A DNA stretch of 55,853 nucleotides from Clostridia bacterium (lineage in GTDB: Bacteria; Bacillota; Clostridia; RUG12999), in the NCBI GenBank assembly GCA_045546415.1, contig JAZQCS010000071.1, positions 1-55,853 on the forward strand, in the 5' to 3' direction. The stretch's first letter is position 1, and each line of letters starts with the position of its first letter. The position numbers were made by a program, and so were the translations under genes. Below are positions 14,926-31,313 of this stretch, piece by piece. Below the pieces are notes generated by a model. It saw only the letters and a list, made by a program, of their open reading frames with translations, was not told where the DNA came from and ran no database searches.

Positions 14926-17538
14926 CTAAAGTAATTTTTTCAAATCGTAAAGAATTCCCATTGCCTCAATGGGGGTAATTGTATTAATATCAAGCTCCTT
15001 GAGTTTTTCCTCTACGGGGCTTGCCACCGACATAAGGCTCATCTGCCCGGAAATGGGAGCTTTTGAGCTCGTCACAACGGAGGGTTTAACAACAACCTGA
15101 CCGTTTTCCTGTTCTATGCCATTTAAAATTTCCTTTGCACGGCGGATAACACTTTCAGGCACACCTGCAAGAAGAGCAACCTCCACACCGTAGCTTCGGT
15201 CTGCACTGCCTTTTGTTATTTTGCGAAGGAAAATTATATCGTCTCCGCGCTTTTTAACGGCAGTACTGTAATTTACCACACCGGGCAGGGTCTTGTCCAG
15301 AGTGGTAAGCTCATGATAGTGGGTTGCAAAAAGGGTTTTTGCACCGCACTTTTTAGGGTCAGCGGTATATTCAAGCACCGCCCAGGCAATGGCTAAGCCG
15401 TCATAGGTGCTTGTGCCTCTGCCTATTTCGTCGTATATAATAAGACTGCGTTTTGTGGCATTTTTAAGAATATTTGCCACCTCGCTCATTTCCACCATGA
15501 AGGTGCTCTGTCCTGCGGAAAGGTCATCCGAAGCGCCAACACGGGTGAAAATACGGTCAACAATTCCTATGTGTGCAGAGGAGGCAGGAACAAAGCTGCC
15601 TATCTGTGCCATAAGGGTTATTACCGCCACCTGGCGCATATATGTGGATTTACCTGCCATATTGGGACCGGTTATTATGGAAAGCCTTTCCCCCGAATTG
15701 TTAAGGTCGGTATCATTGGGAACAAACATTGTTTTTGAAATGGTTTCAACAACGGGGTGTCTGCCATCTTTAATTTCAATAACTCCCGATTCATCCACAA
15801 CGGGCTTTGAGTAGTTATTCTTTGCGGCAACGCAGGCAAGGGAATTAAGACAGTCCAGAGTGGAAACCACTCTTGCAGAGGTTTTTATTCTCTCGTTTGC
15901 CTCCGAAACCTTTTTTCTTACCTGACAGAAAAGGTCATATTCAAGCTGAACCTTCTTGTCCTTAGCGTCAATTATAAGCACCTCAATTTCTTTAAGACGG
16001 GGGGTTATGTAACGCTCTCCGTTTGTTAAGGTCTGCTTGCGAATATAGTAATCAGGCACTTTGTCCTTGTTGGAATTGGATATTTCTATGTAATAGCCAA
16101 AAACACGGTTGAAACCCACTTTAAGGTTTTTAATGCCCGTTTTTTCTCTTTCCTCGGCTTCAACCTCGGCAATCCACTGTATGCCGTTTTCTTCTGCCTC
16201 ACGGTACTTGTCGAGGGTTTCGTTAAAGCCGTTCTTTATAATTCCGCCTTCTTTTATGGTGGTGGCAGGGCTGTCATCTATTGCCATATCAACAAGCATG
16301 GCAATATCATCAAGGGTATCAAGCTTAGCCGCAAGGGAAACCAGAATTTTACTGCGGCATCTCGAAAGAAGGCCGGCAAGTGCAGGAAGCTCCATTGCGG
16401 AGTGACCGATTGCAAGCACCTCTTTGGCGTTTGCACTTCCGTTTACAACCTTGGCGTTAAGGCGTTCAAGGTCACGGACACGGCCCATCACCTGACACAG
16501 CTCGTCCCTCATTTCCATTGAACCGAAAAGCTCTTCAACACCGCCCAGACGGTTATTGATGGAAACGGGATTCAGAAGAGGATGCTCAAGCCAGTAACGA
16601 AGCATTCTTGCACCCATTGCCGTAGAGGTTTTATCCACAACGCTGAGCAAACTGCCTTTTTTCCCTCTGCCGCGCATACTTTCGGTAATTTCAAGGTTTC
16701 TTCTGGAAGAAACATCAATATCCATATACTGTGTTGCCCGGTAATATTCCACATAGTTTATGTGGTCAATGGTGGTTTTCTGAGTTTTTATAATATAACT
16801 TACAGCTGCACCTACAGCACAGATACACAAGCCGTTTTCGGGCATACCCAAATCTGTCGCAAACTTTCCGAACTGGTTTTTTATAACCTCCTCAGCGGCA
16901 GGCTGTTCAAACTCCTCCGCCTCGCCTTTTGAGACATAGCAGTTATATTTATCCTCAGCAAGCTTACATATCACCCCATCCTCCGCCGCTTCGGGAGAAA
17001 GATATATTTCCGAAGGAGAAAACCTTGCAAGCTCTGCTTCAAAGCCCGCCATAAGGTCACCTTCAACATCGGTGCAGTAAAGCTCACCTGTGGAATAATC
17101 CAGAAAAGCAATACCAATTCCGCCATCCTGCTTTTTTACCGATGCAAGAAAATTGTTTTTTGTTTGCTCAACGGCATTTTCGTCGGTAATTGTGCCGGGG
17201 GTTACAATGCGCACAACCTCACGGCGCACAAGACCCTTTGCCGCCTTCGGGTCTTCGGTCTGCTCACAGATTGCAACCTTGTAGCCGCTTTCCACAAGCT
17301 TATTTATGTAGCCGGTTGCGGCATGGTAAGGCACGCCGCACATGGGGGCACGCTCCTCCTGACCGCAGTCCTTACCCGTCAGGGTAAGCTCCAGCTCACG
17401 GGACACCGTTACGGCATCCTCAAAAAACATCTCATAAAAATCGCCAAGACGGTAAAACAAAATGCAATCCTCATACTGCGCTTTTGTTTCCAGGTACTGA
17501 CGCATCATTGGGGTAAACTCCCCGCTAATTTTCGCCAA
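14926..17538 (-). CDS. mutS: DNA mismatch repair protein MutS
   Basis: TPMMRQY, GDFYEMF, TGPNMAGKSTY, STFMVEM, DEIGRGTST, FATHYHEL. Confidence 0.98.
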   Translation of the reverse strand: MAKISGEFTPMMRQYLETKAQYEDCILFYRLGDFYEMFFEDAVTVSRELELTLTGKDCGQEERAPMCGVPYHAATGYINKLVESGYKVAICEQTEDPKAAKGLVRREVVRIVTPGTITDENAVEQTKNNFLASVKKQDGGIGIAFLDYSTGELYCTDVEGDLMAGFEAELARFSPSEIYLSPEAAEDGVICKLAEDKYNCYVSKGEAEEFEQPAAEEVIKNQFGKFATDLGMPENGLCICAVGAAVSYIIKTQKTTIDHINYVEYYRATQYMDIDVSSRRNLEITESMRGRGKKGSLLSVVDKTSTAMGARMLRYWLEHPLLNPVSINNRLGGVEELFGSMEMRDELCQVMGRVRDLERLNAKVVNGSANAKEVLAIGHSAMELPALAGLLSRCRSKILVSLAAKLDTLDDIAMLVDMAIDDSPATTIKEGGIIKNGFNETLDKYREAEENGIQWIAEVEAEEREKTGIKNLKVGFNRVFGYYIEISNSNKDKVPDYYIRKQTLTNGERYITPRLKEIEVLIIDAKDKKVQLEYDLFCQVRKKVSEANERIKTSARVVSTLDCLNSLACVAAKNNYSKPVVDESGVIEIKDGRHPVVETISKTMFVPNDTDLNNSGERLSIITGPNMAGKSTYMRQVAVITLMAQIGSFVPASSAHIGIVDRIFTRVGASDDLSAGQSTFMVEMSEVANILKNATKRSLIIYDEIGRGTSTYDGLAIAWAVLEYTADPKKCGAKTLFATHYHELTTLDKTLPGVVNYSTAVKKRGDDIIFLRKITKGSADRSYGVEVALLAGVPESVIRRAKEILNGIEQENGQVVVKPSVVTSSKAPISGQMSLMSVASPVEEKLKELDINTITPIEAMGILYDLKKLL

Positions 17539-17566
17539 TTTTTACACCTCAATATCTATTTTAAGA

Positions 17567-17962
17567 TTAATGACATCCGCCACAGGAGCCGCAATTGCCG
17601 GAACATGAGCCTTCCTGCTCTTTTTCGCCGGTAACGAAATATTTGATAATGGCATCAACTTTTGCAAGAATTTCCTCAACCTGCTGTTTTGCCGCCATAT
17701 ATTCAGCAATTTCGGGGCATTTTGAAACCTCTTCGTATTTTGCAGCCATTTTTTTACGGATTTCAATCATTTCCATGGGAGTAATATCCTCCCGTTTTGC
17801 CTCCTCTGCAAGGCTTGCACGAAGCTCGGAATACTCTGCTGTTAAAATCTGTGCCTGTTCGCTGCTTTCGTAGGCAATTTCTTTAAGTGTGTAGTTTTTC
17901 ATAGCCTCACTGTCGCGGATTGCTTCTCCGAGAGCAGTTGCTTTTTCAATAATCTTGTCCAT
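17567..17962 (-). CDS. YlbF/YmcA (Ric) family regulator with Cys-rich tail
   Basis: Helical 131 aa (IIEKATALGEAIRDS), C-terminal CSGNCGSCGGCH, position between miaB and mutS. Confidence 0.8.
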   Translation of the reverse strand: MDKIIEKATALGEAIRDSEAMKNYTLKEIAYESSEQAQILTAEYSELRASLAEEAKREDITPMEMIEIRKKMAAKYEEVSKCPEIAEYMAAKQQVEEILAKVDAIIKYFVTGEKEQEGSCSGNCGSCGGCH

Positions 17963-17976
17963 TTTTCTCTGCCTTT

Positions 17977-19401
17977 CTATTTTTCAATTTCGCCAACCAT
18001 ATACCAGGTTCTGGCGCTTATAATTTTTATATTTACAATTTCACCGATAAGCTCTTCTCCGCCTTCAAAATGCACAAGCTTGAAGGTGTCGGTATGACCG
18101 GTTAAAAGCTTTTCGTTTTCCTTGCTTTTTCCTTCCACAAGCACGGGGTAGGTTTTCCCCACACAAGCAGCGGTTTTTTCTGCGGTAATTTCGTTCTGCA
18201 CCTCTAAAAGCCTTTCAAAATGTGCCTGCTTTTCCTCATGGGTGAAGGGGTCCTCCATTTCGCTTGCCGGTGTACCCTTACGGGGCGAGAAAATGAAGGA
18301 GAAAATTCCGTCAAACCGTACCTTGCGCAGTACATCCAGAGTTTCCTCAAAATCCTCCTCCGTTTCACCGGGAAAGCCTACAATAATATCGGTGGTAAGT
18401 GCAATATCCGGAATTTTTGCTCTGATTTTTTCAATCAGGCTTATAAAACCTTCTTTTGTGTATTTACGGTTCATTCTGCGGAGAATTTCCGTAGACCCGG
18501 ACTGCAACGCAAGATGAATGTGTTTACAAACACTTTTGCACTCTGCTATTGCAGAAATGGTTTCATCGGAAAAATCCTTAGGATGGGAGGACATAAACCT
18601 TACCCGCTCAATGCCCTCTATTTTATCAATTTCCCGAAGCAGGTTTGCAAAGCTGTTTTTATCCCCACCGTCACCGCGGTAGGAATTAACATTCTGACCC
18701 AGAAGCATAATTTCCTTACAGCCGTTTTTTGCAAGACCTTGTATTTCCTCAAGAACCGAGCTTATGTCACGGCTTCGTTCCCTGCCTCGTGTATAAGGCA
18801 CAATGCAGTAGGAACAGAAGTTGTTACAGCCGTACATAATGGTTACCCTTGCGGTGTGGGTTTTTTCCCTTTCCACCGGCATACCTTCACAAATAAACTC
18901 CGAGCCTTCAAAAACCTCAAACACTCTTTTCTGACCGCGAAGCTTTTTCAGAAGCAAAACCGGAAAATTATGCAGATTGTGAGTTCCGAAAACAACATCC
19001 ACAAAGTGAAAGGACTTTTTTATTTTTTCCACCACATGAGGCTGCTGCATCATACATCCGCATATGCAAATTACAAGGTCAGGGTTTTTCTCCTTAAGCT
19101 TCTTAAAGGCACCCACATTCCCAAGCACTCTCATTTCCGCACCTTCACGGACAGCACAGGTGTTCACAACAATTACCTCTGCCTCTGACGGGTCCCCGGT
19201 AAAACCGTAGCCCGCCGCTTTAAGCATTCCCCGTATACGCTCCATATCCGCCTCGTTCTGCTGACATCCGTACACAACGGTGTGAGCAAGAAGAGGCTTT
19301 CCGCTACCGGAAGCTTTTTCGCTATTAAGTTTTTTTATACCTTCAAGAGCCTTTATGTGTTCCGTGCCGAAAACAAGCTCTGCCGTGTTTTTTTCTGTCA
19401 T
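17977..19401 (-). CDS. miaB: tRNA-2-methylthio-N6-dimethylallyladenosine synthase
   Basis: YGCQQN, NTCAVRE, radical SAM CNNFCSYC, LLGQNVNSY, TDIIVGFPGET, TRAM domain. Confidence 0.97.
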   Translation of the reverse strand: MTEKNTAELVFGTEHIKALEGIKKLNSEKASGSGKPLLAHTVVYGCQQNEADMERIRGMLKAAGYGFTGDPSEAEVIVVNTCAVREGAEMRVLGNVGAFKKLKEKNPDLVICICGCMMQQPHVVEKIKKSFHFVDVVFGTHNLHNFPVLLLKKLRGQKRVFEVFEGSEFICEGMPVEREKTHTARVTIMYGCNNFCSYCIVPYTRGRERSRDISSVLEEIQGLAKNGCKEIMLLGQNVNSYRGDGGDKNSFANLLREIDKIEGIERVRFMSSHPKDFSDETISAIAECKSVCKHIHLALQSGSTEILRRMNRKYTKEGFISLIEKIRAKIPDIALTTDIIVGFPGETEEDFEETLDVLRKVRFDGIFSFIFSPRKGTPASEMEDPFTHEEKQAHFERLLEVQNEITAEKTAACVGKTYPVLVEGKSKENEKLLTGHTDTFKLVHFEGGEELIGEIVNIKIISARTWYMVGEIEK

Positions 19402-19916
19402 TTCGGGTCTCCGTTGAATTTAATACATACTATAATTATAATACACCTTTCTAATTATACAACAAAAAGCCGTTAATTTCAAGTATCCAAGGCAACTTTT
19501 TTTGTTTTTTTTCAAAAAAAATTTACGGGTTCTTCCCAATTTCCTCTAAGTATCTTTTCAATACCTTATTTTATTTTTCATTTTTTTCGGTAAAATTTCA
19601 CCTGTTTACCCTCCCGGTTCCAACGGCTTTAACTTTCTTTTTAGAACTTAGTATCTTTTTGTATGCGTAATTATTGTTTTATTACCATGTTATGCGGTTT
19701 TACCCATTTTATTTTTTTACATAACAGCCCGTTTTCCCCCTTTGTTTTTCATTTTTTTAAAACAAAAAAATGCCCGTTTTACCTGTCTCTTTTCCGATAA
19801 AATCCGTCTTAAAAACAAATATTAATTTTTCTATTGATTTTATTTTTATTTTGGTGTATAATATTTTCAGGAACACCCATGTTTCATTGTAAAAAAATTT
19901 CATTTCAGGTGATTTT

Positions 19917-20834
19917 ATGATGTATCCCAAAACTCTGCCGCCTATGATATCCCCCAGAACCTGGGCACACGCAAATATGTTCAAAAGCGGAAACGATATG
20001 GAATTTACCAAAAGCTACTACCACAGAACAAATTCCACCATTAATATGCACAACCACAATTTTTATGAAATTAACATAATTACCGAAGGTAACGGCAGAC
20101 ATTACATAGAAAACAACAACTGTGAGGCTCTGCCCGGCACGGTTTTTGTAATACCTCCGGGCATAAGCCACGGGTACTACGCAAACCGTCACCTTTGTGT
20201 TTACCACATAATTGTAGGCTACCCCTTCATTGAGCGCTATTCTCCTGAGCTCAGCGCATTACCCGGCTATTCCCTTCTTTTTGAAATTGAGCCTCTTCTT
20301 CGCGGAGAATATGACAGCAACCTTTTTCTCAGCCTTGACGAAACCGAGCTTGAAAAGCTCACCCCCCTTTTTAACCGTCTATGCTCCCTGGAGGTCAGCA
20401 CCTACAAAGGGAAATTTGTAATGAAAAACTCCCTTGTTTTGGAATTAATCAGCATTCTTTCCGAAAAAATTTCAGGGCAGATTCACAATCCGGTATCCCT
20501 TCACAAAAATCCTTATTCCACTCCGGTTATTCGAAGCATGGAATATATACGAAACCATTACAACGAAAAAATTGCTTTTAAAAGCCTCGCGGAAAAGCTG
20601 AATATGTCCTATTCCACTTTTCTCCGCCATTTCTCGGAAATTTGCGGAATGTCCCCCGGTCAGTACCTGAACAACTGCCGTCTGGACAAAGCCCGTGAAA
20701 TGCTTACTCACACCGAAAAAAACATTCTGGACATTGCCATTGAATGCGGATATTATGACAGCTCACATTTCATACGCGCTTATTCCGAAAAATACAAAAT
20801 GAGCCCCTTAGCTTTCCGCAATTCATTAAAATAA
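19917..20834 (+). CDS. AraC-family transcriptional regulator
   Basis: Cupin HNHNFYEI; C-terminal double HTH (ILDIAIECGYYDSSHFIRAY...MSP). Confidence 0.92.
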   Translation: MMYPKTLPPMISPRTWAHANMFKSGNDMEFTKSYYHRTNSTINMHNHNFYEINIITEGNGRHYIENNNCEALPGTVFVIPPGISHGYYANRHLCVYHIIVGYPFIERYSPELSALPGYSLLFEIEPLLRGEYDSNLFLSLDETELEKLTPLFNRLCSLEVSTYKGKFVMKNSLVLELISILSEKISGQIHNPVSLHKNPYSTPVIRSMEYIRNHYNEKIAFKSLAEKLNMSYSTFLRHFSEICGMSPGQYLNNCRLDKAREMLTHTEKNILDIAIECGYYDSSHFIRAYSEKYKMSPLAFRNSLK

Positions 20835-23847: not shown

Positions 23848-25191
23848 TCAGTTTATTCGCAGTCCTTTCGGAAAATGATTTTTCAGCACTCCGTTTGAGG
23901 CTTTTGCCCATCCGAGAGGCAAGCCGTCACACACTACTGCTGTCCAGCCTTTACCTTCACCTTCAAGGATTTCACCGTGAAGGTATTTTTTTATATCCTC
24001 ACTATGGGCGGAAAACTCTGCAATTGACACAAACTCTTTGGGAGAAAGAGCGAGAGCCAGGGCATGAGCGGGCTCGAATCTGCCTTTTTTACACAGCCCC
24101 AGGTGAAGCCCCGGCTGAATAATTTTCAAGCCTTCAAGGTTTAAGGGAACCGGCATAAGATACAAATTTTCACCAAAAAGCACAAACTCACCGCAAAGCC
24201 TTGTTTTAAGGGCTTCCTTTTCAAAGCTCCGGTAAAGCTTAACTGCCTCATCAAGCCCTTTCGAGGGCTTATTTTTATTTTGTACGCAGGCTTCGCCTTC
24301 CCCTTGTTTCCTGAAAAGTGCAAGAAAATGTCCTTCACCCCGGTTTTTGTGCGGAAAAATTCGTTTTGTGCCCGAAAAATCCCGGTCCGAACCAATATAT
24401 TCCCCTTTTCCTTCACTTAGCATTGGAAGGTTTAATGCTACCAGCTCCATATGAGGGTATTTTTCAAGAACATATTCACAAACCCCCTCGTTTTCGCAAG
24501 GAGCAAAGGTGCAGGTAGAATACACAAGCATACCGCCCATTTTAAGCATTTTCACCGCACTGTCCAGAATGTTTTTCTGCCTTGCCGCACAGGAAAGGGT
24601 GTGCTCCTCGCTCCACTCGGTAACAGCCTGAGGCTCCTTACGGAACATTCCTTCCCCGGAGCAGGGCGCATCCACAATAATTTTGTCAAAAAATTCCGAA
24701 AAACGGTTCTCAAGCTTTTCGGGGCTTTCGTTTGTAACAACAGCATTTTTAATGCCCATTCTTTCAATGTTACCGGCAAGGATTTTTGCCCTTGCGGGTA
24801 CAATTTCGTTTGCTACAAGAAGCCCTTTCCCCTGCAATTTCACACCGGCCTGAGTAGCTTTACCCCCCGGTGCAGCGCACAAATCCAGAACAAAATCACC
24901 CGGCTGAATGTTCAGCACTTCAGCCACCGCCATTGCAGAGGGCTCCTGAAAATAAAGCAAGCCTCCCAGATGGTACGGGTGATTTCCTGAAATATCTTTT
25001 TTTGAGATGTAATAACCCTCACCGCACCAGGGTACCCGGTGAGTTAAAAAAGCCGGTTTGTTTGCGGATTTCAAAGAGTTAAGCCGTACACCCTCCGCCG
25101 GGTTACCCTCTGTGAATGCAGAAACAAAAGCGTCATATTCGGTTTTTAACATTTCCCTCATACGGGATTCAAATTTTGGCGGAAGGTTCAT
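23848..25191 (-). CDS. RsmF/NOL1/NOP2/Sun-family rRNA m5C methyltransferase
   Basis: YFQEPSAM, LDLCAAPGGK, DAPCSGEGMFRK, YSTCTF, C-terminal LKNHFPKGLR; ATG 25191 after AAGGAG. Confidence 0.93.
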   Translation of the reverse strand: MNLPPKFESRMREMLKTEYDAFVSAFTEGNPAEGVRLNSLKSANKPAFLTHRVPWCGEGYYISKKDISGNHPYHLGGLLYFQEPSAMAVAEVLNIQPGDFVLDLCAAPGGKATQAGVKLQGKGLLVANEIVPARAKILAGNIERMGIKNAVVTNESPEKLENRFSEFFDKIIVDAPCSGEGMFRKEPQAVTEWSEEHTLSCAARQKNILDSAVKMLKMGGMLVYSTCTFAPCENEGVCEYVLEKYPHMELVALNLPMLSEGKGEYIGSDRDFSGTKRIFPHKNRGEGHFLALFRKQGEGEACVQNKNKPSKGLDEAVKLYRSFEKEALKTRLCGEFVLFGENLYLMPVPLNLEGLKIIQPGLHLGLCKKGRFEPAHALALALSPKEFVSIAEFSAHSEDIKKYLHGEILEGEGKGWTAVVCDGLPLGWAKASNGVLKNHFPKGLRIN

Positions 25192-25216
25192 AAGCGCTCC
25201 TTTTTGAGATTTATGT

Positions 25217-25347
25217 TGCGGGCGGATGATATGATAGCCGCCCCTGCGGGTTGAATTTGGTTGTCTTGTAGGGGGGTCTCCGTGCCCTCCCGAAACAAAA
25301 TGCAACCATATACAAAACGGGCGGGGACAGAGCCCCGCCCCTACGGG
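25217..25347. repeat. Cluster of GTAG-type REP-like palindromes (inverted doublet plus a degenerate unit)
   Basis: GTAGGGGGGTCTCCGTGCCCTCCCG (from 25268) inverted against CGGGCGGGGACAGAGCCCCGCCCCTAC (to 25344); degenerate GCGGGCGGAT...CCGCCCCTGC at 25217-25247. Confidence 0.75.
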
Positions 25348-25351
25348 TTAA

Positions 25352-25586
25352 TTATACCTTATAACGGAAGTTGAATCTACCGATTGGGGCTGTAACTCCG
25401 TTACCAACGTTAACTTTGTTTTTCCGTTAGTTGTGCACTTATACTACACTTTGTATCTGAAATTGAAACGCCCGATTGGTGCTGTAACTCCGTTACCAAC
25501 GTTAACTTTGTTTTTCCGTTAGTTGTGCACTTATACTACACTTTGTACCTGAAATTGAAACGCCCGATTGGGGCTGTAACTCCGTT
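25352..25586 (-). repeat. 92-bp-period tandem array: three copies of the last 17 codons of the upstream gene separated by two identical 41-bp spacers
   Basis: Copies at 25352-25402, 25444-25494 and 25536-25586 all translate NGVTAPIGRFNFRYKV*; spacers 25403-25443 and 25495-25535 = ACCAACGTTAACTTTGTTTTTCCGTTAGTTGTGCACTTATA. Confidence 0.95.
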
Positions 25587-27683
25587 AACATAAAAGTCCA
25601 TAATGTCACCAATTTCACGCTTACCTGTGAAGGCGTTATCCGACCATTTGAACTCAAAATCAAGCCCATCGCCTTCAACACCCAGAAGCTTTTTGGGAAC
25701 GGCAATCTGTACAAAATCGCCTTTAATCTGTTTTTTAACGGTGCCCACCTTTGTCCATACGAAGGCATTTTCAGATTTCTGAAGCTCTTTTCCGCAGATA
25801 CGGAATTCATAGCCCTCCCATCCGGTTTCCTTGCTTCTGTCCATATCAAGATAAAGCACCATACAGTTGGGAGTATCTGTACCCACAATTTTATCCGAGC
25901 ATTTTGCGTAGAAATAAAGGTTATCCTTATCTCTGGCAACACGGGCTTCTATAATATCATTTCTGCCGGTTTCATTCTGGTACTGAATGGTGGGGCCGTA
26001 ACCGGGATACCGACGCACCTGGGTTGTACCCTTCATATTAACAAAGGCGGGTTTAACGGTTTTCCACTGTTCTTCCCCTGCTTTCAGGTCTATGGTCTTT
26101 TTGCCGCTTGGTTTTTGGGGTTTTTTGGTGCCTTTGAATTTTCTCACATTGGCAATCATCTGCAGATAATAGGTATCAAGATAACCGTCGCAGTCGGGCT
26201 CAATGTCACGGCTGTGCTCATAGTCAAACTCATCCACAAAAGCAATCTGCGGACCTTTGGTTTCGTCCTCAATCCAGTTATCGTGGCATCTGCCCATTAT
26301 CCACTCGTTCCAGCCGCAAAGGAAAACAATGTCGGGGTCCGCTTCAAAGGCGTTGTCCCACTGTTCCTGGAAATTGTAGCCGTATTTATAGGAATCCTCT
26401 GTGAGCAGAGCGTGTTTGTCCTTAAAGGTATAGCTTCTGCCGTAGGTGCCTTTGTTGTTAAAATATGTACAGGCTTTTTCGTCGTTACAGTTCTGTGCAA
26501 CGCCTACGGTCATCTGCTCAAAGGTGCCGTCCTCACGAACGCAGTATTTATGCTGAGGTGCGGCTTCAAGCCAGCCCCAATCCACATTGCTCCGAGGACC
26601 TGCTTTATAGCTTGGCTGAGGCGGACGGAAGGTGAAAAATTCTCTTATTTCATTCAGGAACTTTGTATCCTCTTTTGAAAAACCCACGGGGGAAATTGCG
26701 GTTTTGTGTCCCATAATAAGGGGTTTTCCTTCATGGTAGAACCACAAATCGGAATAAAGCCCGGGCTTATAAATATCCATATAAAGGCTACGGAGCATAT
26801 GCTCGGTTGCCGCCGAGGAATTAAAGCTCATAAGGAAGGTTACCTTCGGCACATCAATGCCATCTGCCTTAGCAAGACGGAAACCTTCAAAAAGAGCACG
26901 GTAAGCCTCTTTTTTACTGCCCGAAACATTGGTGCAGTCAAAGGCAATGAAATCAATTCCTGCAGCCGCAAGCATTGCCGCGTGTTTACGGATAACATAA
27001 GGGTCGGTTGGACGGTAATAGCCAAACAGAGGCTCGTTCCAGTAGCAGCTGCCCGGGTGCCATACGGGGTGGTTATAATCCATTACCGCATCGGGGAACT
27101 GTTTAAGAATTTTTGTTACATTCTGAGGCTCTGTGCCGGCATCTGCCTCGTGCCAGTTCCAATAAAACAGACCTACCTTTTTACCTGTGGGGTCGGGACA
27201 CTCCTCTGCCGAGGGAATGTGTCTGCCAAGCATATCGGTGGCTTCCCAGGTATCGGGCAGAACACCGCGCTGTGCGGATTTTGGCACGGGACGGTATTCC
27301 TTACGGTCGTAAGGGCTATCGGTGGTAAACTCAAACTGCCAGAAGGGGCCTTTTGTGTGGAAGATAATATAAACATCGTGAACGCCTGTGGTTTTTACCA
27401 TTTCCTGCCACACGGTGTAGAAATTGCCGAAACGGTCCTGTGATGCGCAGGCAACAATACAAAGCACCTTACCCTGAAGGCTGTCAAGACGCACCTCAAC
27501 AAGACCTGTGCCCCAGCTTACTGTACCGTGGGTAATTTTAAAGCCGCGTTTACCTTCACCGAAATCAATATTCTTAAGAATGGCGTAATCGCCTTCTATT
27601 TGACCAACCTGCAAAAAGCCTTTGTTGGATATGTAAGCTTTTCCGCAGGGAACGGCACTTTGTGCCTGTAAAATTGTATCCAT
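25536..27683 (-). CDS. Putative glycoside hydrolase: N-terminal CBM6-like module + GH99/GH71-like TIM barrel + C-terminal beta domain (paralogue 2)
   Basis: CBM6-like IDFGEG...VEVRLDSLQG...TGVHDVYIIF; catalytic-like GLFYWNWH, EPLFGYY, RKHAAMLAAAGIDF, GWNEW, SRDIEP; no signal peptide visible; ATG 27683 after AAGGTG. Confidence 0.7.
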   Translation of the reverse strand: MDTILQAQSAVPCGKAYISNKGFLQVGQIEGDYAILKNIDFGEGKRGFKITHGTVSWGTGLVEVRLDSLQGKVLCIVACASQDRFGNFYTVWQEMVKTTGVHDVYIIFHTKGPFWQFEFTTDSPYDRKEYRPVPKSAQRGVLPDTWEATDMLGRHIPSAEECPDPTGKKVGLFYWNWHEADAGTEPQNVTKILKQFPDAVMDYNHPVWHPGSCYWNEPLFGYYRPTDPYVIRKHAAMLAAAGIDFIAFDCTNVSGSKKEAYRALFEGFRLAKADGIDVPKVTFLMSFNSSAATEHMLRSLYMDIYKPGLYSDLWFYHEGKPLIMGHKTAISPVGFSKEDTKFLNEIREFFTFRPPQPSYKAGPRSNVDWGWLEAAPQHKYCVREDGTFEQMTVGVAQNCNDEKACTYFNNKGTYGRSYTFKDKHALLTEDSYKYGYNFQEQWDNAFEADPDIVFLCGWNEWIMGRCHDNWIEDETKGPQIAFVDEFDYEHSRDIEPDCDGYLDTYYLQMIANVRKFKGTKKPQKPSGKKTIDLKAGEEQWKTVKPAFVNMKGTTQVRRYPGYGPTIQYQNETGRNDIIEARVARDKDNLYFYAKCSDKIVGTDTPNCMVLYLDMDRSKETGWEGYEFRICGKELQKSENAFVWTKVGTVKKQIKGDFVQIAVPKKLLGVEGDGLDFEFKWSDNAFTGKREIGDIMDFYVNGVTAPIGRFNFRYKV

Positions 27684-27724
27684 AAAAATCACCTTATTAA
27701 AACTTTTTATATGTGTTCATTTAT

Positions 27725-27757
27725 GCGGGCGACCACACAGGGTCGCCCCTACTACGG
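27725..27757 (-). repeat. GTAG-type REP-like palindrome immediately after the stop codon
   Basis: Minus strand CCCGTAGTAGGGGCGACCCTGTGTGGTCGCCCGC. Confidence 0.78.
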
Positions 27758-27758
27758 G

Positions 27759-29909
27759 TTATACCTTATATCTGAAATTGAACCTTCCAATGGGCGCTGC
27801 AACGCCATTAACATAAAAGTCCATAACATTATCCTTGAAATCGGGGTTTGTGAAGGCGTTATCACTCCACTTGAACTCAATATCAAAGCTGTCGCCCAGA
27901 CCTAAAAGTTTTTTGGGAATGGCAATCTGCACGAAATCACCCTTTATCTGCTTTTTAACCGAGCCAACCTTTGTCCATTCAAAGGCGTTTTCGGATTTCT
28001 GCAGCTCTTTTCCGCAAACACGGAATTCGTAACCTTCCCAGCCTGTTTCCTTGCTTCTGTCAAGGTCAAGGTAAAGCACCATACAGTTATCTGTATCTGT
28101 GCCAACGATTTTTTCCGAGCATTTTGCATAGAAATAGATATTGTCCTTATCCCTTGCAACACGGGCTTCGATAATGTCGTTTCTGCCGGTAAGGTTCTGA
28201 TATTTAAGAGTTGCACCAAAACCGGGATATGAACGGTAAGGTGTTGAGCCCTTGGGGTTCATATACACGGGAGCAACCTTTGCCCATTGCTCTTCCCCTG
28301 CTTTAAGGTCGATTGTCTTTGCGGCACTTGCTTTGGGGAGCTTGTTTGTACCCTTGAATTTACGGATATTTGCCGCCATCTGCAGATAATAGGTATCAAG
28401 ATAGCCGTCACGGTCAGGCTCAATATCACGGCTATGCTCACGGTCGTACTGGTCAACAAAGGCAATCTGTGTACTGCCTTCCTCTTTAATCCAGGGATTT
28501 GTGTGTCTGCCCATTATCCATTCGTTCCAGCCGGTAATGAAAATATGGTCGGGGTCGCCCTCTAAGGCGTAATCCCACTGTTCCTGGAAATTGTAGCCGT
28601 ATTTGTAGGAATCCTCCGTAAGAAGGGAATGACCGTGCTTATAGGTATAGCTTCTGCCGAAGGTATCCTTTGCATTAAAGTGGGTGCAGGTGCGCTCGGC
28701 GTTCTGGTTCTGTGCCACGCCAACTGTCATCTGCTCGCAGGAGCCGTCCTCACGAACAACATATTTATGCTGAGGTGCGCTTTCAAGCCAGCCCCATTCG
28801 GTGTTGTTATAATCGGGACGGGGACCGCATTTGTAACCGGGCTGACCGGGACGGAAGGTGAAAAACTCACGGATTTCGTTTAAGAACTTTGTATCTTCAT
28901 CGCTGAAGCCCTTTTCGGGAAGTGCGCCGGGGTCAGCCATAAGCATAGGCTTGCCGTTTACTCTGAACCAAAGGTCGGAGAACAAACCGGGCTTGTAAAT
29001 ATCCTGATAAAGGCTGCGGAGCATATATTCGGTGGTGGGGCTCTTCCAGAAATTCATAATGAAGGTAACCTGAGGCACCTTTATGCCGTCCATTTTTGCA
29101 AGGCGCAGACCTTCAAAAAGTGAACGGTACGCCTCTTTTTTGGTGCCTGAGCCGTTGGTGGTATCAAAAGCAAGGAAATCAACACCTGCACTTGCAAGCA
29201 TAACGGCGTGTTTACGGATTATGTAAGGGTCGGTATCACGGTAATAGCCAAACAGAGGCTCTCCCCAGTGGTTGGGGCCGGGCTTCCATACACGGTGATT
29301 TATGTCCCATTCCGCTTCGGGGAATTCCTTGAGTATCTTGGTTAAGTCCTGAGGCTCACATCCTGTATGTGCCTCGTGCCAGGTCCAGTAAAAAATACCT
29401 ACCTTTTTATCCCGTTTGTCGGGACATTCCTCGGGAGAGGGCATTTTTCTTCCAAGCATATCGGTTGCCTCCCAGGTATCCGCCATAACATTACGGATAG
29501 CTTTGTCGGGTACGGGAGTGTAGTCCTTATTCTTATAAGGGCTGTCGTTTGTAAATTCAAAACGGGTGTATTCCGCTGTGCCGTGGAAGAACAGATAAAC
29601 ATCGTGAATACCTGTCGTTTTGGTGATTTCCGCCCAGATGGTGTAAGAGTTGCGGAAACTGTCCTGAGATGCACAGGCAGGTACACCTATAACCTTGCCC
29701 TTCTCACTGTCAATTCTTATTTCAACAAGGCAAACGCCACCCTGTGCGCCTATATGGGTAATTCGTATACCCTGCTTACCCTTGCCGAAATCCACGCCCT
29801 TTAAAACGGCGTAGTCGCCCTCTGCCTGACCAACCTTAAGTGTACCCTGATTTGTAACATAGGTTTTACCGTAAGGTATGGCATTTGTTGCCTGCATGAT
29901 TAATTCCAT
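27759..29909 (-). CDS. Putative glycoside hydrolase: CBM6-like + GH99/GH71-like (paralogue 1)
   Basis: Colinear with 25536-27683 along its whole length (DTWEATDMLGR, EPLFGYY, GWNEWIMGR, APIGRFNFRYKV); GGAGG RBS. Confidence 0.7.
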   Translation of the reverse strand: MELIMQATNAIPYGKTYVTNQGTLKVGQAEGDYAVLKGVDFGKGKQGIRITHIGAQGGVCLVEIRIDSEKGKVIGVPACASQDSFRNSYTIWAEITKTTGIHDVYLFFHGTAEYTRFEFTNDSPYKNKDYTPVPDKAIRNVMADTWEATDMLGRKMPSPEECPDKRDKKVGIFYWTWHEAHTGCEPQDLTKILKEFPEAEWDINHRVWKPGPNHWGEPLFGYYRDTDPYIIRKHAVMLASAGVDFLAFDTTNGSGTKKEAYRSLFEGLRLAKMDGIKVPQVTFIMNFWKSPTTEYMLRSLYQDIYKPGLFSDLWFRVNGKPMLMADPGALPEKGFSDEDTKFLNEIREFFTFRPGQPGYKCGPRPDYNNTEWGWLESAPQHKYVVREDGSCEQMTVGVAQNQNAERTCTHFNAKDTFGRSYTYKHGHSLLTEDSYKYGYNFQEQWDYALEGDPDHIFITGWNEWIMGRHTNPWIKEEGSTQIAFVDQYDREHSRDIEPDRDGYLDTYYLQMAANIRKFKGTNKLPKASAAKTIDLKAGEEQWAKVAPVYMNPKGSTPYRSYPGFGATLKYQNLTGRNDIIEARVARDKDNIYFYAKCSEKIVGTDTDNCMVLYLDLDRSKETGWEGYEFRVCGKELQKSENAFEWTKVGSVKKQIKGDFVQIAIPKKLLGLGDSFDIEFKWSDNAFTNPDFKDNVMDFYVNGVAAPIGRFNFRYKV

Positions 29910-29933
29910 AATTTTTACCTCCCGTTGGGAAAT

Positions 29934-31178
29934 TTATTTCTCGGCATCCTGCCGTGAATTTCTTCTTACAAGTGAATTGGGAATGACCTTGCCCGGTGTT
30001 TTCAGCTTTACAATCATTGTTGCGTGAGGTGCGGAATTGATGTCAAAGCCTTTTTCGTCGGTCATATAATCCGCATTAAATTTCATAAAACCCGGGACCA
30101 TGGGCTGAATAATTTCAAGCTCCTCACCACGGAAAAAGCGGTTTCTCTGCTCAATGGTTGCAATGCCCGTTTCCTCGTCGTAATCCTTAACCACGCCCAC
30201 AAGGTCGTAGTTTCTCACATACGATGAGGTTTCGTAAACCTGGCTTTCCGCCGTGGTTTTACCCTCAAAAAAGCCTGTGCAGTACCTTCTGTGGCTTACC
30301 TTTTTAAGCTCCTCCATGAGCTCGGGGTTGAATTCGTAATAACTGCCGTCACGGTAATATGCATCAATGGCTTCACGGTAGGCCTTAACCACCGAAGCCA
30401 CATAATATTCGGTTTTAACTCTGCCTTCAATTTTAAGGGAGGTTACTCCTGCATCAATAATTTCGGGCAAATATTCAATAAGGCACAAATCCTTTGAATT
30501 GAAAATGTAGGTGCCTTTTTCGTCCTCATAAACCGGGTAATATTCCCCGGGGCGCTTTTCTTCCATAAGGTGATAATTCCACCTGCAGGGTTGTGCACAG
30601 GCACCACTGTTACTGTCACGGCTTATCATATAGTTACTCAGCAGGCATCTGCCCGAGTAAGAAACGCACATTGCGCCGTGAACAAACATTTCAAGTTCAA
30701 GTCCCACGGGAGTTTTACTGCGGATTTCTTTAATTTCCTCCATGGAAAGCTCACGGGCAAGCACCACTCTTTTTGCACCAAGCTTGTAAAAAGCGGTGGC
30801 GGTGGCGGTGTTTACAATGTTTGCCTGGGTGCTTACATGAATATCAAGTCCGGGTACATTTTCCCGAAGGGCAATAAGTGTGCCAAGGTCCGCAACAATA
30901 GCGGCATCAACCTTAAGGGAATGGGCAATTTTTGCCGCTTCCACAATTTTTTCAACATCGTCGTTATGGGGAATAACATTCAGGGCAATGTAAACCTTTA
31001 CCCCTTTTTTGTGGGCAAATTCCACGCCCTGACGGATATCCTCCACCGAAAAATTTTCTGCTGCGGTACGCAGAGAAAAGGCTTCACCGCCTATGTATAC
31101 CGCATCCGCACCGTAAAGCACGGCAAATTTAAGTTTTTCAAGGCTCCCGGCAGGAGCAAGAAGTTCAATTCTGTTCAT
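29934..31178 (-). CDS. U32-family peptidase / tRNA hydroxylation protein (TrhP/YrrO-like)
   Basis: ELLAPAGS, YGADAVYIGG, HVSTQAN, FVHGAMCVSYSGRCLLS, CAQPCRW, SLKIEGR; follows mltG and the O-methyltransferase. Confidence 0.92.
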   Translation of the reverse strand: MNRIELLAPAGSLEKLKFAVLYGADAVYIGGEAFSLRTAAENFSVEDIRQGVEFAHKKGVKVYIALNVIPHNDDVEKIVEAAKIAHSLKVDAAIVADLGTLIALRENVPGLDIHVSTQANIVNTATATAFYKLGAKRVVLARELSMEEIKEIRSKTPVGLELEMFVHGAMCVSYSGRCLLSNYMISRDSNSGACAQPCRWNYHLMEEKRPGEYYPVYEDEKGTYIFNSKDLCLIEYLPEIIDAGVTSLKIEGRVKTEYYVASVVKAYREAIDAYYRDGSYYEFNPELMEELKKVSHRRYCTGFFEGKTTAESQVYETSSYVRNYDLVGVVKDYDEETGIATIEQRNRFFRGEELEIIQPMVPGFMKFNADYMTDEKGFDINSAPHATMIVKLKTPGKVIPNSLVRRNSRQDAEK

Positions 31179-31211
31179 AGGGTTCTCCTTATGTGTGTTT
31201 TTTGGTTTGAA

Positions 31212-31313
31212 TGTCATTCTGAGGAAAAAGCTTTAGCTTTGACCGAAGAATCTCATAAAAGAACCTTGAAAACAAAGAGATTCTTCAGTCGCAAAAGCTC
31301 CTTCAGAATGACA
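31212..31313. repeat. Long imperfect palindrome, TGTCATTCTGA...TCAGAATGACA family interspersed repeat
   Basis: TGTCATTCTGAGG...GAAGAATCTC / GAGATTCTTC...CTTCAGAATGACA inverted arms, inserted between two co-oriented operon genes. Confidence 0.8.

Follow-up and report, generated by a model that had tools for sequence, protein, structure and literature searches.

We suggest that the threefold gene end at a CBM6 gene of an animal-gut clostridial bacterium is a real and selectively neutral recombination scar, in which an allelic end and its 41-nt flank were joined at a 24-nt core and unequal crossover set the number of units. We would give this reading a probability of roughly 55%. The DNA analysed, which we call the window, is the whole of contig C71 (55,853 nt) of a metagenome-assembled genome (MAG) of 2.6 Mb in 141 contigs, 84.6% complete; labels such as C15, C69 and C96 denote contigs of the same MAG. 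Should the recombination reading hold, the array would be functionless in itself and a clean natural case of gene-end exchange by addition, not replacement. The old end would then persist as a dated fossil, and the silent differences would record that both ends were once translated.

Anatomy of the array and its genes

On the minus strand, the last 17 codons (51 nt; 16 codons and a stop) of a 718-aa CBM6 gene occur three times, and the two 41-nt spacers between the copies are mutually identical. TRF describes the array as 2.3 copies of a 92-nt period with 97% matches. An earlier note on this DNA had described the triple end, the identical spacers and the 92-nt period, and its coordinates and content hold on the minus strand, as do all features given below. 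The gene itself, gene B (25536..27692, an ORF with an N-terminal CBM6 in Pfam and the rest without a family), terminates in copy 1 (25586-25536). This copy is translated and consists of a core, counted within the copy as 23 nt, and a tail that we call D (GGG CGT TTC AAT TTC AGG TAC AAA GTG TAG), with a TAG stop. Spacer 1 (25535-25495; 41 nt, untranslated), the first 30 nt of which are akin to the 3' flank of a related allele found in runs X2 and X3, leads to copy 2 (25494-25444). Copy 2 is untranslated, carries GCA and AGA at the two sites where it departs from copy 1, and shares its last 24 nt with the single gene end of X2 and X3. Spacer 2 (25443-25403) has the same sequence as spacer 1 and leads to copy 3 (25402-25352), untranslated and with a TAA stop, in which the core is followed by a different tail, N (GGT AGA TTC AAC TTC CGT TAT AAG GTA TAA); this appears to be the displaced resident end. 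All three copies encode the identical 16 residues, and the spacers contain no ORF. A shared core had been recognised earlier and is indeed present, but its length had been given as 23 nt, and the preceding T is also shared. The core of 24 nt (T followed by AACGGAGTTACAGCCCCAATCGG; 25564..25587) recurs with one change, GCA, at 25472-25495 and identically at 25380-25403, and it is here that we place the presumed crossover.

Copy 3 is followed by a TTAACCCGTAG head, a G+C hairpin (25340-25319) and a T-rich tail, which together form a predicted REP-like intrinsic terminator (25319..25351) that would serve the whole array. This hairpin is the one terminator-like site in 25000-25900, and none other lies between gene B and rsmF, the downstream core gene (23848..25305). 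Because the sole such site comes after copy 3, the array should lie in the 3' untranslated region. A promoter scan at the array returned 0 sites, Rfam gave 0 matches in 24900-26000 at E up to 1, and RNA folding of 25300-25600 gave no signal (z -1.46, with 8/100 shuffles equally good). Between the array and rsmF (window 25226-25345) we note three G+C hairpins of alternating orientation; in one of the gut runs compared below, X1, there is one of these three hairpins only, and the linker is 62 nt shorter. The 12-nt hairpin head motif AACCCGTAGGGG has 9 matches in the genome at up to 1 mismatch, several of them ahead of similar hairpins.

Gene B lies in tandem with a sister paralogue, gene A (716 aa; 27759..29909), in which the array is absent. 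As the earlier note had observed, gene A ends as the distal copy does, with TATAAGGTATAA followed by CCCGTAG and a hairpin. CBM6 is solid in both genes (Pfam E 4.7e-11 in gene B), and that half of the former label, CBM6-GH99-like, stands; the GH99 half traces to a sub-threshold Pfam match in paralogue A only (E 1.4e-4, 21.5 bits against a cut-off of 33). NCBIfam offers no name for A or B, and a PDB sequence search recognised CBM6 alone. In two genomes of the same genus a U32 peptidase gene directly adjoins rsmF, and in the window the A-B pair lies between them (27693-31217 and 23848-25305). The pair is hence a lineage-specific insertion at a core-gene junction. The surrounding genes of the contig are core genes (ileS, divIVA, sepF, mutS, mutL, miaA, miaB, ffh, trmD), and mutS and mutL are intact.

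The family to which A and B belong has a C-terminal stretch of ~75 residues that ends in a motif like APIGRFNFRY. With tblastn (E up to 1e-3) this stretch was located at 58 places in the genome, the two extra array copies not counted, and its last 13 residues are identical in genes A and B. This ~75-aa domain (FEFKW.DN ... DFY.NGD.AP.GRF.Y.Y) sits mostly at the extreme end of its protein, its 58 places are spread over about 40 contigs, and five genes that carry it stand in tandem at C110:23362-32389. It is nameless in Pfam and NCBIfam; in the Atlas it falls into unnamed clusters, with Glucodextran_C and CBM9 as weak leads.

Silent divergence and the origin of the two ends

Copies 1 and 2 differ at 2 nt (GCC/GCA and AGG/AGA), both silent, which for two random substitutions has a chance of 0.05, and their units are 97.8% alike. 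These differences may be allelic variants, not new mutations, since the AGA of copy 2 is the variant seen in X2 and X3. Between copies 1 and 3 there are 10 differing nt in 8 of the 10 codons after the core, the stop counted, and again all are silent; when 10 random substitutions were simulated, 0 of 200,000 trials came out all-silent. The earlier claim that every difference is synonymous was thereby borne out for both pairs. Silence of this kind is what would be expected if each tail evolved as a translated end, under purifying selection, before the two were juxtaposed. The conservation of the C-terminal motif at 58 places explains why both tails would have been under such selection. Two constrained, translated ends can differ only silently, and a mechanism of recoding is therefore unnecessary.

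The differences are also unevenly placed. None of the 24 core positions differs between copies 1 and 3, and right after the core come 10 differences in 28 nt (Fisher p 0.005 for the contrast, with 8/27 entered), a change that would mark a junction at that point. Copy 3 is moreover followed by the hairpin and not by a spacer. Plain slippage was rejected as the whole origin of the array on account of this diverged tail and hairpin flank, as the earlier note had argued in holding that slippage alone cannot give a recoded copy; slippage can account for the unit number alone. Slippage at a microhomology (GTTAACG) was likewise rejected for the first unit, as it predicts a period of 83 where 92 is observed, and no microhomology was identified for the first spacer-to-core junction.

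Several features help to tell the resident end from the imported one. The distal N tail is written in codons that the genome prefers (GGT 0.41, AGA 0.34) and ends in TAA, which makes up 67% of stops, while the in-gene D tail uses rare ones (GGG 0.07, AGG 0.12) and ends in TAG, which makes up 11%; by hand arithmetic, the codon-frequency products of the two tails are ~140-fold apart. The last 12 nt of the N tail, together with the CCCGTAG-hairpin layout, are held in common with paralogue A. A search for the spacer elsewhere in the 2.6-Mb genome at up to 3 mismatches gave none (shuffles expect 0), the D tail has no relative elsewhere in the genome, and the spacer resembles neither the A-B intergenic region nor any other in the genome. 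Copy 3 looks, then, like the resident, ancestral end, as the earlier note had supposed from the paralogue's layout, and the in-gene end and spacer look imported. This assignment is supported by codon preference, by the TAA stop and by the layout of paralogue A, and its direction, with D imported and N resident, is one that we infer.

Alleles in other gut runs and a proposed course of events

Among 24 sequencing runs, the best contains 0.21 of the sampled words and none contains half. Four animal-gut runs (X1, X2, X3 and X20) were compared, all as Logan contigs, in which a part of the window without contig cover is no sign of absence. In X1, a single 321-nt contig runs from the start of rsmF (1/103 letters other) through 27 nt of hairpin and six letters of its own into the gene end (25/123 other). 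In X2 and X3, a contig of 282 or 318 nt runs through the gene (15/132 letters other), then through 18 letters that stand in place of most of the core, and then through 24 nt that equal the tail of copy 2, after which it continues for 108 or 144 nt in other sequence. The first 30 letters of this flank match the spacer at 19 of 30 (63%) in a fixed register after the stop, for which a hand count gives a binomial p of about 1.6e-4 at a match rate of 0.30. The rsmF of X2 and X3 differs at 3/274 letters, and this near-identity, like that in X1 (1/103), indicates that runs X1 to X3 hold conspecific strains. X1 is by this evidence a conspecific allele in which a single end is set straight against the hairpin, and there is no array.

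X20 offers a different form. A contig of 122 nt matches 25466-25587 with 2 other letters and runs from copy 1 through the full spacer into the following core and 6 nt of the D tail. It reaches 29 letters past the spacer, just short of our 31-letter bridging rule, and its overlap with a second contig, of 132 nt and from a gene 12% different (16/132 letters other), is exactly 30 nt long. The length of 122 equals 92+30; for a Logan k that we take to be 31, a 30-nt overlap of this kind is how a path leading into a closed 92-nt cycle would look. Between X20 and the window the unit agrees at 98% or more but the adjoining gene at about 88%, so either recent transfer or constraint is needed to explain the unit.

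As read from the Logan contigs of X1, X2/X3 and X20, the population includes alleles that end ordinarily in a D tail and a spacer-like flank as well as an allele free of the array, and the tandem junction is present beyond the assembly of the window. If the array arose by allelic recombination, the insert ought to be known elsewhere as an ordinary allele, and it is found as such: X2 and X3 have a single end with a spacer-like flank, and X1 runs without an array to rsmF. The earlier note would have given up its own reading if a related allele had the spacer as its normal 3' flank and a single recombination had brought it in before it was duplicated, and with 19/30 letters shared we take this to be the case. 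The search for other alleles that it had advised was in part fruitful, as the spacer turned up nowhere else in the genome and the gut runs yielded array-free, single-end and tandem alleles. With the spacer just 63% like the flank in X2 and X3, the actual donor allele is presumably not among the single-end forms observed.

Searches beyond these runs gave little. The 24-nt tail pattern, at up to 2 mismatches, occurs in 0/24 other genomes of the family and at 0 places in the metagenome contig collection, and a degenerate pattern for the last nine codons and stop also finds 0 places in that collection. The same degenerate pattern had one match in the genome contig collection, in an unrelated cyanobacterial MAG, which was taken as chance and set aside. 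The explanation for these misses is that the genome and metagenome collections searched simply lack close relatives. A DNA search of the 701 nt around the array against 40 relatives returned one 65%-identical homologue in a same-genus genome and short matches; with RsmF at 60-67% amino acid identity, the same-genus genomes are too distant to date the event.

We propose the following order of events, each step of which should be taken as conjecture. The resident end of gene B would have been core, N tail, TAA and REP-like terminator, now copy 3, arranged as in the tandem sister A. The DNA joined to it would have come from another allele lineage and carried the same 24-nt core, a synonymously diverged D tail with TAG, and its own 3' flank. 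The join would have been out of register, with the 24-nt core as the sole homology on the downstream side, and it could have come about by a short-homology or "homology-facilitated" join, or by repair synthesis templated by donor DNA in which, as in X20, a tandem unit was present beforehand. Because the core was the only downstream homology, the newly copied core-D-spacer unit or units would have annealed back at the resident core, and because this join was out of register, the old end would have been shunted downstream instead of being replaced. The incoming end would thus have become the translated one, with the old end pushed 92 or 184 nt downstream. Two units may have resulted from unequal crossover or slippage between cores, or may have been imported ready-made. 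Several points weigh against this proposal. The spacer is only 63% like the X2/X3 flank, the first spacer-to-core junction has no microhomology that we could identify, the X20 unit is nearly that of the window beside a diverged gene, and the intact mutS and mutL should restrain homeologous exchange.

Other stacked ends, competing origins and known systems

The genome was scanned twice for gene tails repeated downstream, and these scans were combined with an exact-repeat scan. Applied to the 2,964 frames that reach 150 aa, the first scan yielded 4 loci, with the one on C92 judged a non-gene; the second took in the 13,558 frames that reach 60 aa and yielded 17 rows, of which 6 rows from 4 loci were accepted. 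The 11 other rows were discarded as weak matches or as spurious frames on intergenic repeats, a tRNA tandem and a contig end. A UDP-GlcNAc 2-epimerase gene (Pfam E 4.5e-118; C96:25584-25749) has a 75-nt exact 3'-end repeat with a period of 91, its translated copy ending GTT TAA before 16 nt of other sequence and its distal copy ending GTA TAG before a terminator hairpin. An alpha/beta-type SASP gene (C15:19367-19500) has its last 41 nt, including the stop, repeated exactly with a period of 93, and its 52-nt spacer is about 66% like the flank after the distal copy by hand alignment. A GTP-dependent PEPCK gene (C118:17862-18149), with a period of 202, presents an 86-nt end with terminator A, a diverged end (MAEELTKLENNLK*) with a different terminator B, and an exact second 86-nt A. 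These three genes fit a general recombination process, not a locus-specific device, and their recurrence argues for a general process at gene ends, or simply that only stop-straddling duplications are harmless. An unruled process would not be expected to give three unrelated genes periods as close as 91, 92 and 93 nt, and this closeness counts against our preferred reading. Four such genes in one MAG, three with near-equal period, are the only part of these results that might hint at something undescribed.

Other origins for the array have to be weighed against allelic recombination. It is conceivable that the assembler threaded two or three strain alleles of the gene end serially, as the window is a contig of a 141-contig, 84.6%-complete MAG from a population with real strain variation at the locus, and three other loci stack allele-like ends. 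Contig ends in this MAG overlap by up to 141 nt with a peak at 141, a pattern that we take to be that of a k=141 de Bruijn assembler. By our reasoning, however, a de Bruijn contig cannot hold spacer-to-core junctions that are absent from the reads, and, given the two SNPs, only one path is possible once k exceeds about 27. The independent X20 contig, with copy 1, spacer, core and D tail at 2/122 other letters, also speaks against an artefact. Since such assembly cannot invent junctions and X20 presents one independently, we regard an artefact as improbable. A k-mer or read-length origin of the 91-93 nt periods was dismissed as well, since the overlaps show k=141 and no assembler mechanism was found for junctions absent from reads. 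An unlikely but coherent alternative is that a third tandem paralogue, C, was deleted except for its last 51 nt, with the spacer being the start of the old B-C intergenic region and the 92-nt unit being duplicated afterwards. The family does sit in tandem (A-B here, five in a row on C110), its paralogues have near-identical C-terminal peptides, and the likeness of the X2/X3 flank to the spacer was seen over its first 30 letters. Yet a core identical at 24/24 positions, with 10 differences in the next 28 nt, has the look of a crossover point, not of paralogue divergence, the spacer is unlike the A-B or any other intergenic region of the genome, and X1 is a conspecific allele with nothing between gene end and hairpin.

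The earlier note had favoured the scar of site-specific integration, or else some undescribed machinery of 3'-end replacement. Its inference that the native end was displaced by a foreign but protein-identical end is supported, but the att-like integration or new machinery that it offered as the cause is not. In an integration, an attP element with a replacement 3' end would have entered the 24-nt core once or twice and later been reduced to 41 nt. This is attractive in that the core is identical at the junctions (24 nt in copies 1 and 3, one change in copy 2) and in that e14 in icd, as outlined in a review (PMC6379469), offers a precedent for the logic of a foreign replacement end that leaves the protein the same. 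But a Pfam scan of 43 of the 44 ORFs that reach 100 aa on the 55.8-kb contig, all but the partial one at the contig start, turned up no integrase, transposase or recombinase, in keeping with the earlier remark on the small 41-nt cargo and absent integrase, and neither the 50,697 phage records nor the 72,556 plasmid records gave a match. The spacer, moreover, resembles the flank of an ordinary single-end allele, which also weighs against undescribed machinery. As two independent deletions that leave identical 41-nt remnants are implausible, integration too would require a duplication step, and we consider it quite improbable. A ruled or programmed process that pastes "end + flank" patches of ~92 nt before resident ends, for example by annealing ssDNA or mRNA-3'-end cDNA out of register, would account for the periods of 91 (C96), 92 (gene B) and 93 nt (C15) at three of the four stacked-end loci and for an X20 unit that is at least 98% conserved beside a 12%-diverged gene. 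However, there are only three such loci, noticed post hoc, with the fourth (PEPCK, C118) at 202; the junctions have no common motif by eye; the one reverse transcriptase of the genome belongs to a phage DGR-like locus on C69; and no structure or RNA family was detected. For this array, such a process seems to us a long shot. Equally, it is very unlikely that across all four genes (CBM6 enzyme, UDP-GlcNAc 2-epimerase, SASP and PEPCK) a process ruled by a length of about 91-93 nt repeatedly pastes patches of allelic end and 3' flank, whether from short ssDNA or from mRNA 3'-end cDNA, ahead of resident ends, with the stacks as a CRISPR-like chronological record of allele imports.

Stacking of 3' ends is known in kind, and the array is a small, probably neutral variant of it. 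In rhs loci, and also in CDI and T6SS effector genes, the account of Jackson et al. (2009; PMC2935791) has the new end translated and the old end left silent downstream, with arrays built up by repetition; the mechanism proposed there for the displacement is homologous recombination at a conserved core, with no dedicated recombinase. The array resembles these loci in its conserved core and in the alternative ends stacked downstream of the translated one. It differs in that rhs tips, as described there, are different toxins with immunity genes, on cores of hundreds of bp and with diversity under selection, whereas here tips of 28 nt encode an identical peptide, the core measures 24 nt and the cargo 41 nt, no function is gained and no toxin or immunity gene is involved. 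We know of no description so far of a 92-nt silent stack at a gene end, though our literature searches were not aimed at exactly that.

According to the review (PMC6379469), in which Hill et al. (1989) is cited, prophage e14 (and phage 21) supplies icd with a replacement 3' end, and the gene end is present twice, the translated copy being foreign and nearly protein-identical and the native copy a pseudo-end. The array is alike in this respect and has the identical core, but e14 is an element of the 15-kb class with its own integrase between the copies, whereas the array has 41 nt there, with no integrase among 43/44 contig ORFs, none beside the insert, and no cargo related to a phage, plasmid or ICE.

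In homology-facilitated illegitimate recombination, a donor is anchored by homology on one side and joined by short homology, or out of register, on the other. Tandem duplication triggered by transformation, through alternative pairing, has been described in a related vein (PMC3784515). Both processes make duplications possible without a site-specific enzyme, as the recombination reading of the array would ask, but their known cases are duplications of kb to hundreds of kb or lab-selected foreign insertions. A diversity-generating retroelement (DGR) was considered because both differences between copies 1 and 2 (2/2) fall on adenines of copy 2 and because, as in a VR/TR pair, a 3'-end repeat lies just downstream. 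It was rejected: there is no reverse transcriptase nearby, the genome's single RVT_1 match being at C69:18299-18964 in a phage-like locus; the 10 differences between copies 1 and 3 are mixed in kind; the spacer adenines are unchanged; and there is no protein diversity. The C69 locus (16799-20464) is itself a phage-like DGR candidate, in which an ORF whose C-terminal region is of DGR-variable type lies immediately upstream of an RVT_1 reverse transcriptase of 383 aa (E 7e-17), with small phage-like ORFs following.

Stacks that straddle a stop are invisible to selection, and they could hence mark homeologous recombination between gut strains; they are also a reason for caution among annotators and assemblers. 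Other repeats were observed in the same MAG. At C86:8560-8830 and C88:39230-39560, small inverted-repeat elements (ends like TTAGAAATTT...AAATTT) lie directly after terminator hairpins, and a 27-30 nt hairpin is repeated on both sides of the element or in tandem with it. At C114:26050-26313 the contig closes with an exact copy, 90 nt long, of sequence that lies 174 nt upstream, which is probably a repeat left unresolved at the contig end. Finally, a G+C-rich element of roughly 95 nt at C70:25670-25915, present in two tandem copies 152 nt apart, looks like a candidate structured RNA.
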